Positions 25,311 through 28,694 of a stretch of 64,000 nt of DNA are shown here, piece by piece (within the stretch, counting starts at the first letter, position 1; each line of letters opens with the position of its first letter). The DNA is taken from positions 1 through 64,000 of the forward strand of contig CAZFHY010000015.1 in NCBI GenBank assembly GCA_964519305.1, in the 5' to 3' direction. A program made the position numbers and the translations under genes. This stretch comes from Candidatus Undinarchaeota archaeon. Its GTDB lineage: Archaea; SpSt-1190; JASMDC01. The notes beneath the pieces were generated by a model. The model was not told the DNA's origin, searched no databases, and was given only the letters and a program-made list of their open reading frames with translations.

Positions 25311-25427
25311 CTTTCGGTTTTTTAGGGCGGCTCCCCGACCATCTTGTTCCCCTTTAAGAGCGCCCGGAGACAGAATAATAGTATCGTTTGGGGAATTATC
25401 CCAGAGAGAAAAAACAGAAAGGTGACA

Positions 25428-25808
25428 ATGATGGAAATACAAGGGAACCAGGTACCGGAACTGGCGACCGTGTTCCCCGTTGAAGCCAGTGAGCTTACGG
25501 CTGCCACGTTGCCAATCCTTGATAGCGAGCGTGACCAATACCACATCCAGCATGAACGGAACTGTTCTGTTTGCGGATGTCCATTGGAAGAAGAATGGGA
25601 ATATCTCCCGTGCGACGCCTGCGGCGCCATTGTGTGCAGCGAGTGCATCTCAAAGGCAGACGGCCACCGCATATGCCCTGTGTGCACGAGCGAGCTCGAA
25701 CCGTGGACAGAGCTAGGTTCCGGCATCACGGGTGTCGAGGCCGACGCCACTTGGGAGGACGAACTGGCGGGATGTAATTTGGAAGGGCTCCCCAGAGCCT
25801 TCACATAG
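25428..25808 (+). CDS. Small stand-alone 8-Cys Zn-finger protein
   Basis: GGTGA SD; CSVC..CDAC..CSEC..CPVC with the same spacing as the PrsW tail repeats. Confidence 0.7.
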   Translation: MMEIQGNQVPELATVFPVEASELTAATLPILDSERDQYHIQHERNCSVCGCPLEEEWEYLPCDACGAIVCSECISKADGHRICPVCTSELEPWTELGSGITGVEADATWEDELAGCNLEGLPRAFT

Positions 25809-25878: not shown

Positions 25879-26631
25879 ATGGAACGTCTCGTGCTCGTCG
25901 GCAGCGATCATACGACCAACGTCTATAACTCCGTCATGGATCTACTGGAGCGGGAGCGGCCCGATGCCATCACCTTGGAGTATGATGTGGACTCCGGGTG
26001 CCTAGACTCGGTCCTTGGTATGACCGACGAGGAGCTGGATATCCTCGACCATATGCAGCAGCTGGACTTCCGCACCCAGACGCGCGAGATGGGCGAGCTT
26101 TCCCTCCAGCTGCCCTTCGATAACTACGATTCCGGGAGCGAGCTGTACGCGGGCATCGTGTACGCCCTGCGCACCGGCACCCCCATATTCCTCATCGACT
26201 ACGGGCCGCGCTGGGAGCTGTCCCATGAGCTGGACCTCACCACCCCCGAGGGCCGGGCCGAGGTGCTCGATCCCACTCTCGAACCGCGTCCGCCGCCAAC
26301 GTATCGCGGTCCGAACAAGGAGCCGCTGGACGAGGGCAAGTATTACCACGTGTTCGGGATGTACCGGTTCGGTACCCTGGACGACGCGGATGTGTTCGAC
26401 GATGTTCCCGGAGAGCGCAAGGACGTATCGGTCCGCAACCACTACATGGCCCAGGCACTTGAGAGGGTATACGACCGGACCCAGGCCTCCACTATCGTCC
26501 ACATCGGCGGGAGCGGTCACTACGAACCGACGGTATGCCTGCCCCTCCAGGACATGGTCGCCCCGGGGGAGATGGGGATCAGGACACTCGCTGCCGGCGA
26601 CCTGGTCGTGAACGAGCCCTATTCCGGATAG
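25879..26631 (+). CDS. TraB/GumN/Tiki-like metalloprotein
   Basis: LVGSDH, RPDAITLE, RNHYMA and HIGGSGH match the TraB-family motif order. Confidence 0.6.
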   Translation: MERLVLVGSDHTTNVYNSVMDLLERERPDAITLEYDVDSGCLDSVLGMTDEELDILDHMQQLDFRTQTREMGELSLQLPFDNYDSGSELYAGIVYALRTGTPIFLIDYGPRWELSHELDLTTPEGRAEVLDPTLEPRPPPTYRGPNKEPLDEGKYYHVFGMYRFGTLDDADVFDDVPGERKDVSVRNHYMAQALERVYDRTQASTIVHIGGSGHYEPTVCLPLQDMVAPGEMGIRTLAAGDLVVNEPYSG

Positions 26632-26695
26632 AGGTCCGTACAACCTATACGAAAGGTTGATAAATCAACACGGACCGATTATTAGTAGAGTGCCT

Positions 26696-26773
26696 ATGGA
26701 GAATGCATCGCTGCGAACGATCGTGGCTACGCTCACCTCCAGCTTCGGCACTACGACTTGGTTCGGCTTCTGA
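26696..26773 (+). CDS. Putative Thr-rich leader peptide MENASLRTIVATLTSSFGTTTWFGF
   Basis: 25-codon uORF with 6 Thr (including TTT), about 30 nt after a BRE/TATA-like GAAAGGTTGATAAA and directly upstream of aspartate kinase. Confidence 0.45.
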   Translation: MENASLRTIVATLTSSFGTTTWFGF

Positions 26774-26805
26774 GGGACCCACTCCCGCTCCCGGGTAGTG
26801 GTCCC
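26774..26805 (+). promoter_or_regulatory. GC-rich hairpin immediately after the uORF stop (attenuator-like)
   Basis: GGGAC-c-CACT-CCCG-ctcc-CGGG-t-AGTG-GTCCC, 13 bp with two bulges. Confidence 0.45.
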
Positions 26806-26861
26806 CGACCGTTTACTCAGGAGCGTGACATCCCTGCCGAACGAAGACAGAGGTGGAACGC

Positions 26862-28208
26862 ATGGAAGAAGAAAGGACCCCGGACGAGATCGCGCAACAC
26901 GCAGATGTACGAATCCCCGATAGCTGGGACGGGTCCTTTACAACTACGGTCGTGCTCAAGATCGGCGGCTCCTGTCTCGCTGACGGACCGTCCATCAGGA
27001 TGGTCGTGGACCGGATCGCCGAGATCAAGGCCCGGGGCATCACCCCCGTCATCGTCGTCAGTGCGCTCAAAGGTATGACCGACGCGCTCCTCGACGTGGC
27101 CCTGAACGCCAATGGAGGACATGATCCGCGGCTCGTGGACCGGATCGTGGCCGAGGGTGAGCAGCTGAGCGCCCGCATATTACAGACCGCATGTGAGAGC
27201 GCCGGTGTTCCGGCACGCGCCGTGCTCCTGGCCGATCCGGTGTTCCCCGTGGTCACTGATGACCGACACGGCCGCGCGAGACCACTGCTAGATGAGACCG
27301 AGCGGCGTTCACAAGCGGTGCTGGGGCCTCTCCTGGCCGGCGGTCAAGTGCCCATCGTCCCTGGTTTCGTGGGCATGACCATGGCCGGCGAGATCACGAC
27401 CCTGGGCAGGGGCGGCTCGGATACGACCGCGGTGCTCCTGGGCAGGGCATTGCATGCTTGCGAGATAGTCCTGGTCAAGGACGTGCCCGGTGTCTGCTCT
27501 GCTGACGCACGGACCGTCGATGACGTAAGAACGCTCCCTGAGATGAGCGTCGATGAGGCTGCAGAGCTCGCTGCACACGGTGGAGAAGTGATCTGTCCCG
27601 GATCTCTGACATACAAACCGGCCGATGTGCCTGTACGTGTCGTGGGTCTCGATGCACCCGATCTGCTGGCCGGTGGGACTCTCATCACAGGTGAGCTGCG
27701 GAGCGAGGTACGAGTGGACATAATCGATGGGGAACTTGCCGCAGTGACCGTTGTCGGAAAGGGTGTCGGGAACGAGCGGGGACTGCTCGGGCGGTGCACT
27801 GGAGCATTGGCTGACGTCGGTATCGATGTGGTCGCCGTATCCACATCCGGGATGTCGCTTTGCCTCTATCTGGACCCGGATAGCGTGGATGCGGCCACAC
27901 AGGCCTTGCACCACGTGGTGCTCGAAGAAAATCGACAATCCTCGGTGACCGCTCGGTCAGGTCTAGTTTCCCTATCGGTCACTGGACTGGATGTCGGGCG
28001 GGGTGCTATCGGCGCTATAGATACTGCGCTCGCACGTGAAGGTATCGAGGTAGTCGATATCGCCACTCGACCCTCGCACGCATCTGTGGTCGTGGACGCC
28101 AGGGATGCCGAGCGGGCCCGGGAGTCTCTAGCAGGAGCGTTCGCGAACAACGGACCACGGACAGCTCTTCTCGTGCCACGTCCGGCGGCCGGACCTATCC
28201 CGTCGTGA
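26862..28208 (+). CDS. lysC: Aspartate kinase with C-terminal ACT domains
   Basis: VLKIGGS, VVSALKGMTD, GEQLSA, TTLGRGGSDTTA and KDVPGV..ADAR motifs; ACT repeats; GAGGTG SD. Confidence 0.93.
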   Translation: MEEERTPDEIAQHADVRIPDSWDGSFTTTVVLKIGGSCLADGPSIRMVVDRIAEIKARGITPVIVVSALKGMTDALLDVALNANGGHDPRLVDRIVAEGEQLSARILQTACESAGVPARAVLLADPVFPVVTDDRHGRARPLLDETERRSQAVLGPLLAGGQVPIVPGFVGMTMAGEITTLGRGGSDTTAVLLGRALHACEIVLVKDVPGVCSADARTVDDVRTLPEMSVDEAAELAAHGGEVICPGSLTYKPADVPVRVVGLDAPDLLAGGTLITGELRSEVRVDIIDGELAAVTVVGKGVGNERGLLGRCTGALADVGIDVVAVSTSGMSLCLYLDPDSVDAATQALHHVVLEENRQSSVTARSGLVSLSVTGLDVGRGAIGAIDTALAREGIEVVDIATRPSHASVVVDARDAERARESLAGAFANNGPRTALLVPRPAAGPIPS

Positions 28209-28217
28209 TGGGATTGT

Positions 28218-28694
28218 CTAGCATAGGGGGAGGAGGTGCTCTACCTCTTCCCTCTTCTCCGCGGCCTCGAGAAGGAGCCTGGCGAGCTTGCGCTTCTCAT
28301 CGAAGTACACTTCCATGGCTGTACTCTCTCCGTAGAGCTCGTATAGCATAGTATCCCTGCCTGCGGGGCAACCTCTTCTACGCATACAGCAGTAAGCTAG
28401 CGATCCGAAGCAGACCTCGTCGCAGTCCCACTTCCGCTCATGTGAGAACGCGTCCTTGATACTGACGAACTCAAGCTGTGACAAGCCGATACGGGAGAGG
28501 AGAGCGTCGCGTCGGCACTTGTCTGCGAACATCAGAGGATGTCCCGGTTTGCAGCAGAAAGTGAGCCCGCGGGCGTCTCCGCCCATGCACACGGGAACTG
28601 GAGCGCGCTCCCATCCGGGCACGTCCCGGAGCTTCGAGGGATCCGGTCCACCATCGTCGACCTTTGCTACATGATCATTCCCCACGGCAATCAT
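28218..28694 (-). CDS. Cys-rich protein resembling methanogenesis marker 9 domain
   Basis: W..AP.PVCMGGDARGLTFCC....C.RD..L..IGLS..EF..IK...CFGSLAYCC...C...RD...Y...K..LA pattern. Confidence 0.7.
   Translation of the reverse strand: MIAVGNDHVAKVDDGGPDPSKLRDVPGWERAPVPVCMGGDARGLTFCCKPGHPLMFADKCRRDALLSRIGLSQLEFVSIKDAFSHERKWDCDEVCFGSLAYCCMRRRGCPAGRDTMLYELYGESTAMEVYFDEKRKLARLLLEAAEKREEVEHLLPLC

Follow-up and report, generated by a model that had tools for sequence, protein, structure and literature searches.

A 64,000-nt stretch of DNA from a Candidatus Undinarchaeota archaeon (contig CAZFHY010000015.1, positions 1 to 64,000 of the forward strand; the window) was analysed around the leader of an aspartate kinase gene. 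Positions 26658–26880 would represent the promoter and a cis-regulatory 5′ leader of ~175 nt belonging to the second, monocistronic aspartate kinase gene of this uncultured marine archaeon. That the leader is a real, strongly constrained regulatory element with two states is very probable, because its extreme conservation is bounded by the promoter and the first kinase codons and because its predicted structures exclude each other. For its mode of action we favour, at a probability of only about 0.4, a two-state translational switch that is read by ribosomes engaged on a threonine-rich upstream open reading frame (uORF). An earlier reading made from the nucleotide sequence without database searches (the sequence-only reading) had listed a 25-codon uORF, a 13-bp hairpin, a Shine–Dalgarno (SD) sequence and an aspartate kinase, all of which were found again, and had proposed an attenuator of the Escherichia coli thrL kind.

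Conservation was analysed by comparing the source genome (G000; 3.63 Mb, 59.6% GC) with that of the sole congener compared (G001); the two were syntenic across the 20 kb examined, with ~87% identity and three insertions in G001. In the leader (26679–26861) 3 of 183 positions differed, against 87 of 278 fourfold degenerate sites (31%) in the kinase gene (binomial P ~1e-25; 6e-8 when set against the mean divergence). Within the conserved block the differences were confined to 26720, 26746 and 26778, with none across 26779–26880, and among 19,430 sliding segments of 180 nt in the ~20 kb alignment that at 26701–26880 ranked first with 98.3% identity (mean 87.3%, second best 96.1%). Both edges of the block were sharp: a diverged spacer adjoins it upstream, and divergence returns at 26881, after the first 19 nt of the coding sequence (CDS), the two kinases being 92% identical. 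The TATA-box sequence ATAAATCAACAC was identical in G001 despite an insertion sequence (IS) element inserted directly upstream there. The uORF and the hairpin, on whose conservation the sequence-only reading had been staked, were both kept in this congener; two of the changes lie within the uORF (one Ile to Val, one synonymous in a Phe codon), none of its 16 fourfold sites differed (P = 0.0025) and conservation extended 88 nt past its stop.

The IS605-type insertion in G001 (1.35 kb, L213:154–1500) lies directly upstream of the TATA box (window 26657/26660) and helps to mark the start of the functional unit. Its product, read from the minus strand, is a TnpB-type protein of 393 aa (OrfB_IS605, 2.3e-28; Cas12f1-like TNB; HTH_OrfB_IS605); the other insertions of G001 in the compared 20 kb measured ~4.8 kb and 0.9 kb.

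Public sequencing runs, other than eight that are possibly the source of the genome, were compared as well; 11 DNA runs and 1 RNA run shared 5–14% of sampled words (k-mers) with the stretch, which, like the k-mer shares of 0.07–0.14 among marine relatives, would fit what one exact block of leader size gives. Over the parts that they cover, a contig of run X14 (record 11) had no differences across 26767–26909 (143 nt), other X14 pieces differing by ~13%, and a metatranscriptome contig (X20) had 4 differences across 26734–26880. The latter, whose depth is uninformative on termination or expression level, hints at co-transcription of the leader and the gene start. The leader is kept in marine metagenome relatives, in at least two further metagenomic lineages.

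For structure prediction each module was folded together with 200 shuffles, from which z-scores were obtained (Table 1); on the minus strand the z-scores were weaker in 3 of 4 modules. The hairpin that had been placed right after the uORF stop (H1) starts at the base 3′ of the stop and has 13 bp with two bulges. The following hairpin, H2, pairs SD bases 26850 and 26852–55 plus 26858–61, and in the ensemble of 26689–26900 the SD was 88–98% paired to 26829–36; a duplex that sequesters the ribosome-binding site (RBS) is thus present in silico. The sequence-only reading had proposed folding for alternatives to its hairpin, and such an alternative was found in a long irregular hairpin, Fold B, in which the last uORF codons and the stop (outer strand) pair with the 5′ arm of H2. 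Fold B can coexist with neither H1 nor H2, and in it the SD is unpaired; as the alternative to H1 it frees the SD rather than competing with a terminator. In folds of growing transcript prefixes, H1 belonged to the minimum free energy (MFE) structure while the 3′ end lay at 26802–26838 and Fold B from 26844; as the 3′ end extended into the CDS the MFE structure alternated between Fold B and H1 with H2, Fold B being found with a 3′ end at 26960. The folding model therefore describes a two-structure expression platform around the SD, with two near-isoenergetic, mutually exclusive states, H1 with H2 (SD paired) and Fold B (SD free). Two of the three G001 substitutions fall in loops, both in the region of the 5′ hairpin, and that at 26778 turns a C-G pair of H1 into U-G; all three are compatible with every proposed helix and therefore discriminate nothing.

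The coding content of the uORF was compared with chance. It has six Thr among its 25 codons (residues 8, 12, 14, 19, 20 and 21), so that end-product codons are clustered and include a run of three, and one Ile, in agreement with the sequence-only reading; codons 8, 12 and 14 fall in loops of the 5′ hairpin, and ACT, used twice in the run, is the rarest Thr codon of the genome (10% of Thr codons). All 6 AC dinucleotides of the uORF are in frame, as are 3 of the 8 downstream of it. Dinucleotide shuffling of the leader (n = 20,000) gave 3310 sequences with an AUG in the first 15 nt, 1335 of them with a closed ORF of 15–45 codons; among these 1335, at least six Thr occurred in 31, three consecutive Thr in 19 and both in 6. 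In upstream regions of the genome 22 of 1329 small ATG ORFs had three consecutive Thr, and at least six Thr were found in 3 of 924 upstream ORFs of up to 30 aa, the leader uORF being among the three. By these figures, all post hoc, the Thr codons are unlikely to have arisen by chance, and a role for them appears plausible because every AC dinucleotide is in frame and shuffles rarely give the pattern.

Table 1. Features of the aspartate kinase leader and gene (window positions).
Feature	Positions	Strand	Details
TATA-like box, leader promoter	26658..26667	+	GATAAATCAA; matches the ATAAA-type box of the genome
Variable spacer, TATA box to proximal promoter	26673..26678	+	5 of 6 positions differ from G001, both flanks identical
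Ultraconserved block	26679..26880	+	AT-rich proximal promoter element, predicted transcription start site, whole leader, first 19 nt of kinase CDS
5′ hairpin	26689..26752	+	−25.4 kcal/mol, z = −3.39, 1/200 shuffles as stable; encloses uORF AUG
uORF	26696..26773	+	25 codons and TGA (26771–73); ATG at 26696; peptide MENASLRTIVATLTSSFGTTTWFGF
Thr run ACT ACG ACT	26750..26758	+	uORF residues 19–21
Fold B, long irregular hairpin	26757..26846	+	−43.2 kcal/mol, z = −4.03, 0/200 shuffles as stable
H1, 13-bp GC hairpin	26774..26805	+	−20.6 kcal/mol, z = −3.55, 0/200 shuffles as stable
H2	26823..26861	+	−15.3 kcal/mol, z = −2.96; pairs SD and 4 nt ahead of AUG
SD of kinase gene	26850..26856	+	GAGGTGG; SD motifs of the genome peak 8–15 nt before ATGs
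Aspartate kinase paralogue	26862..28208	+	448 aa, monocistronic; next gene on opposite strand

Start signals were interpreted by reference to the rest of the genome, where ATAAA/TATAA-type boxes begin 27–30 nt ahead of many ATGs, marking leaderless mRNAs, and GGAGGTGA-type SDs lie 8–15 nt ahead of other ATGs, with GGAGG, AGGTG and GGTGA motifs peaking there; TATA-proximal (leaderless or short-leader) and SD-led starts are thus both in use. The conserved TATA-like box of the leader (GATAAATCA, 26658–66) starts 36 nt upstream of the uORF ATG, and since this exceeds 27–30 nt the transcription start site (TSS) is predicted at ~26684–90, which would give the uORF a 5′ untranslated region (UTR) of 6–12 nt with no SD. 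The uORF had been described as apparently leaderless; it would be nearly so, though not strictly. The U-tract behind the hairpin, which had been judged weak, consists of just TTT (26812–14), 6 nt past H1, and a terminator scan gave no terminator-like site on the plus strand of the leader. Scans for tRNA genes and sigma-70 promoters yielded nothing relevant. A further hairpin, GGTCCGT...ACGGACC at 26633–26676, is located 3′ of the stop of the upstream gene and includes the TATA box; in G001 its 3′ half is not preserved.

In the mechanism that we favour, H1 would form directly after the uORF in state A, and H2 would then hide the SD and the bases ahead of the AUG, blocking kinase translation; in state B the helix of the last uORF codons and stop with the 5′ arm of H2 would free the SD. 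H1 would be the element that decides between H2 and Fold B, and the position of a ribosome on the near-leaderless, Thr-rich uORF would select the state. Because the last uORF codons and the stop are a strand of Fold B, and the stop abuts H1, any ribosome translating the uORF would have to influence the choice of fold. Kinase translation would thereby be tied to the supply of charged tRNA-Thr, by translational attenuation and not by transcription termination; the sequence-only reading had allowed that the mechanism could differ from that of thrL, and the predicted structures indeed indicate translational control.

Ribosome occupancy was modelled at equilibrium, with footprints held single-stranded in four 3′ contexts, a treatment that does not capture kinetics. 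Footprints on Thr8 or Thr14 left the cost of opening the kinase start (26848–76) within 0.1–1.3 kcal/mol of the ribosome-free value. Several results of this model, and others from the genome comparison, weigh against a switch read by ribosomes on the Thr codons. With the A site on Thr19–21, the footprint raised the opening cost by 0.3–6.6 kcal/mol in all four contexts, blocking Fold B instead of favouring it, and the effect of a footprint on the stop codon varied from −1.4 to +5.1 kcal/mol; an opening of the kinase start by Thr starvation was not reproduced by the thermodynamic model, which gave the opposite trend in 4/4 contexts. The uORF AUG is buried in the predicted 5′ hairpin of −25 kcal/mol, its predicted UTR of 6–12 nt offers no SD, and since none of its fourfold sites varies the constraint lies on the RNA, these sites giving no sign of one on the peptide. 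Three substitutions are too few for a covariation test. The sole RNA evidence is the single contig X20, which may reflect DNA carry-over. Other cognate leader peptides were sought in G000 with a crude ORF-based gene set and runs of at least three residues (2 for Trp, 4 for Val, 5 for Leu); the 62 candidates, two of them second uORFs of genes already listed, preceded 60 genes, of which none was a matching biosynthesis gene. Lastly, the thr genes proper stand in a tightly packed cluster (glnA, thrB, thrC, an ACT-domain protein gene and hom; G000:C28:11565–16556, minus strand) in which thrB starts 13 nt past glnA, leaving no space for a leader.

The model suggests reduced access to the kinase start when a ribosome sits on the Thr run or on the stop. 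This leaves an inverted logic, by which a stall closes the start, sensing by the early Thr codons, a dominant role of kinetics, or a trigger other than the ribosome. If the logic were inverted, plentiful Thr (smooth passage) would open the kinase start and stalling would close it, which would fit a second kinase feeding the Lys and Met branches while Thr inhibits the main enzyme.

The last of these options corresponds to a leader of riboswitch-like or factor-binding type, in which a metabolite (e.g. Lys, Thr, Met, S-adenosylmethionine (SAM) or aspartate-family intermediates), a protein or a tRNA would tip the balance between H1 with H2 and Fold B, and the uORF would be incidental or secondary. 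We regard this, the main rival, as somewhat less probable than the favoured switch, though close behind it. It would explain the base-by-base conservation at least as well as the uORF does: near-total identity in stems and loops alike and at all fourfold sites of the uORF resembles an aptamer core and exceeds what a peptide needs. A two-state platform around the SD is the usual design of translational riboswitches, the stable 5′ hairpin sequesters the uORF AUG, and the ribosome-position models yielded no sensible starvation logic. Against it stands the improbable coincidence of the in-frame Thr pattern with a 5′-proximal AUG (6 of 20,000 shuffles), and neither a ligand nor an aptamer architecture suggests itself. 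An Rfam 15 scan of 26000–27500 (E ≤ 10) returned four chance-level matches of 11.6–17.7 bits, against gathering scores of 40–160, and no family reached E = 1; known riboswitch classes, lysine, SAM and T-box among them, gave no covariance-model match (best 17.7 bits, threshold 40). Complementarity to tRNA-Thr was unremarkable in a crude whole-length duplex test (ranks 24, 27 and 34 of 38 tRNAs).

The element was moreover found in one genus only, which also counts against a factor-binding leader. By BLAST there was no paralogue of the leader in its own genome (all other matches E ≥ 0.35), nhmmer with the leader over 200 loci returned only its own and the G001 copy, and a covariance model (R1) recovered only these two genomes among 151 archaeal genomes and a single chance match (E = 0.6) in 188 kinase loci. 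The kinase itself is similarly restricted: within the class (equal to the whole phylum; 17 genomes) only G001 has an orthologue, 2 of 401 sampled archaeal genomes have one at E ≤ 1e-70 (G000 and G001), and none of 401 genomes has one in the phylum of G401 (E ≤ 1e-75). Kinase relatives of 90% and of 44–47% identity were found; contig scans gave only distant kinases (≤46%) among the matches listed.

Another reading, improbable in our view, is that the uORF encodes a functional 25-aa protein or that the leader serves as a dual-function or stabilising 5′ structure and senses no amino acid. In its favour, both genomes keep the ORF open, with a single conservative substitution, and translation of small proteins and uORFs in archaea is described in ribosome-profiling (Ribo-seq) reports from Haloferax and Methanosarcina (PMC7261190, PMC11456600). 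Conservation, however, covers synonymous sites and the 88 nt past the stop; a phmmer search with the peptide against 1.84 billion representatives returned only the G001 copy and two repetitive long proteins, and none of 8 exact look-ups found a leader ORF in gene-caller records.

A classical transcription attenuator, with H1 as the terminator and a stall at Thr codons leading to an antiterminator, was the proposal of the sequence-only reading and is now very improbable. The order of a Thr-rich uORF and a GC hairpin ahead of an aspartate kinase favours it, as do four loci (L120, L136, L157 and L064; Anaerolineae/Chloroflexi-type) among 168 distant kinase loci, in which a small ORF (sORF) with a run of 3–5 Thr, and further Thr, precedes a GC hairpin with a U-run; these sORFs start at L120:2309, L136:1979, L157:2216 and L064:1526, 219–297 nt upstream of the kinase. 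The four leaders look like Thr attenuators, and none matches an Rfam family at gathering score. In the archaeal leader, by contrast, H1 is followed by GACCGTTTAC with three T only, so that termination of the thrL type is unsupported; for termination, longer oligo-T tracts are reportedly required by the RNA polymerase of archaea. The Rfam Thr_leader model gave no match, and the alternative to H1 frees the SD and does not compete with a terminator. Of the earlier proposal, the regulatory leader stands and a role of the Thr codons is plausible, while the terminator falls away and the structures point to SD sequestration.

That the kinase cassette was recently transferred or gene-converted, and that the uORF and hairpins arose by chance and lack function, is scarcely credible: insertions, including the TnpB-type IS element directly upstream, do flank the G001 cassette, but identity ends 19 nt into a gene with 31% fourfold divergence, the 6-nt upstream spacer has diverged too, the same conservation recurs in the further metagenomic lineages, and structure z-scores and uORF statistics speak against chance.

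The identification of the downstream gene as an aspartate kinase was borne out by its domains (Pfam AA_kinase, 3.2e-41, and ACT domains) and by TIGR00657 (260 bits, cut-off 208.7). The other aspartate kinase of G000 is 37% identical to this leader-bearing paralogue; its leader is visibly more diverged between G000 and G001, as read from the alignment with the differences uncounted. The 28-aa N-terminal extension of the leader-bearing kinase has SFTTTV, resembling SFGTTTW of the uORF (26930–26950 and 26741–26761), and the hexamer ACTACG is common to both, which may be chance. Downstream, 9 nt separate the kinase stop from that of a convergent ORF (28218–28694, minus strand; 158 aa, Cys-rich) with a weak resemblance to ‘methanogenesis marker 9’ (70.7 bits, cut-off 96.2) and 82% identity in G001. 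Upstream lie ORFs of 250 aa (25879–26631, plus strand) and 154 aa (25344–25808, plus strand); neither matches a Pfam family, the former also has no NCBIfam family, and the latter is rich in CxxC motifs. The genome further encodes MtrH (G000:C9:30738–31781) and the ACS/CODH beta subunit CdhC (G000:C5:103825–105252), which suggests methyl-transfer or Wood–Ljungdahl metabolism, and with 3.6 Mb it compares with 0.6–1.2 Mb in 15 phylum-mates outside its own genus.

The leader probably constitutes a new element of gene control. To our knowledge, few cis-acting RNA regulators have been described from archaea, and the literature searched contained no archaeal amino-acid-sensing leader peptide or aspartate-pathway riboswitch. 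Tentatively, it could be the first case from Archaea of an amino-acid attenuator that is read by ribosomes, a terminator-free one in which a near-leaderless Thr uORF sets the mRNA fold and with it the translation of an aspartate kinase isozyme, possibly with inverted logic. The leader is short and sharply bounded, and its conservation and competing folds give clear predictions; it lends itself to a direct test of whether amino-acid biosynthesis in archaea can be controlled by an mRNA leader that is reprogrammed by ribosomes or by a ligand, and either answer would add a new regulator class to the archaeal repertoire.

Among known systems, thrL of E. coli (Thr_leader, RF00506) is the attenuator of the thrABC operon. 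Both leaders have a short Thr-rich upstream ORF, a GC hairpin right behind it and an aspartokinase-led gene or operon downstream. Unlike thrL, the present leader has no U-tract terminator and no Rfam match, an archaeal promoter, a near-leaderless uORF and a run of only three Thr with one Ile, and its structures would act on the SD, not on termination. The Anaerolineae/Chloroflexi-type loci share the downstream gene class, a monofunctional aspartate kinase, and Thr runs in a small upstream ORF; they differ in runs of 3–5 Thr and a clear hairpin with U-run, and have no sequence or covariance-model similarity to the archaeal leader. Bacterial Thr-run leaders ahead of monofunctional aspartate kinases thus occur well beyond the enterobacterial thr operon. 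In one of these Chloroflexi genomes a SAM riboswitch was found downstream of the kinase gene (L136:4862–5058; 72.3 bits, gathering score 44.4).

With the lysine riboswitch (L-box) of bacterial lysC the leader shares length, conservation, structure, a two-state platform and its place ahead of an aspartate kinase; it differs in that it has no Rfam model match and no predicted five-way junction, and no lysine riboswitch is known to occur in archaea. In the translational attenuation of ermC, a drug-stalled ribosome on a leader peptide acts through alternative hairpins, among them one that conceals the SD of the gene under control. The archaeal leader likewise has a candidate leader peptide and predicted alternative hairpins with one concealing the SD; it does not reproduce the order of segments by which stalling releases the SD in ermC, whose signal is the drug-stalled ribosome. 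In the equilibrium model a stalled ribosome did not free the RBS, the opening energy of 26848–76 rising instead.

The nearest experimentally tested precedent is found in mycobacterial poly-Cys leaderless sORFs, where stalled ribosomes block an RBS-sequestering duplex (Canestrari et al., 10.1101/834739). That system belongs to another domain of life, senses another amino acid and has been tested experimentally, the archaeal leader being known in silico; and a stall there blocks the sequestering duplex, whereas the stall modelled here would block the anti-sequestering helix. The two leaders appear to have in common a leaderless or near-leaderless sORF, tandem sensing codons, an RBS-sequestering duplex, terminator-free control of translation and a GC-rich genome in which leaderless mRNAs are frequent.

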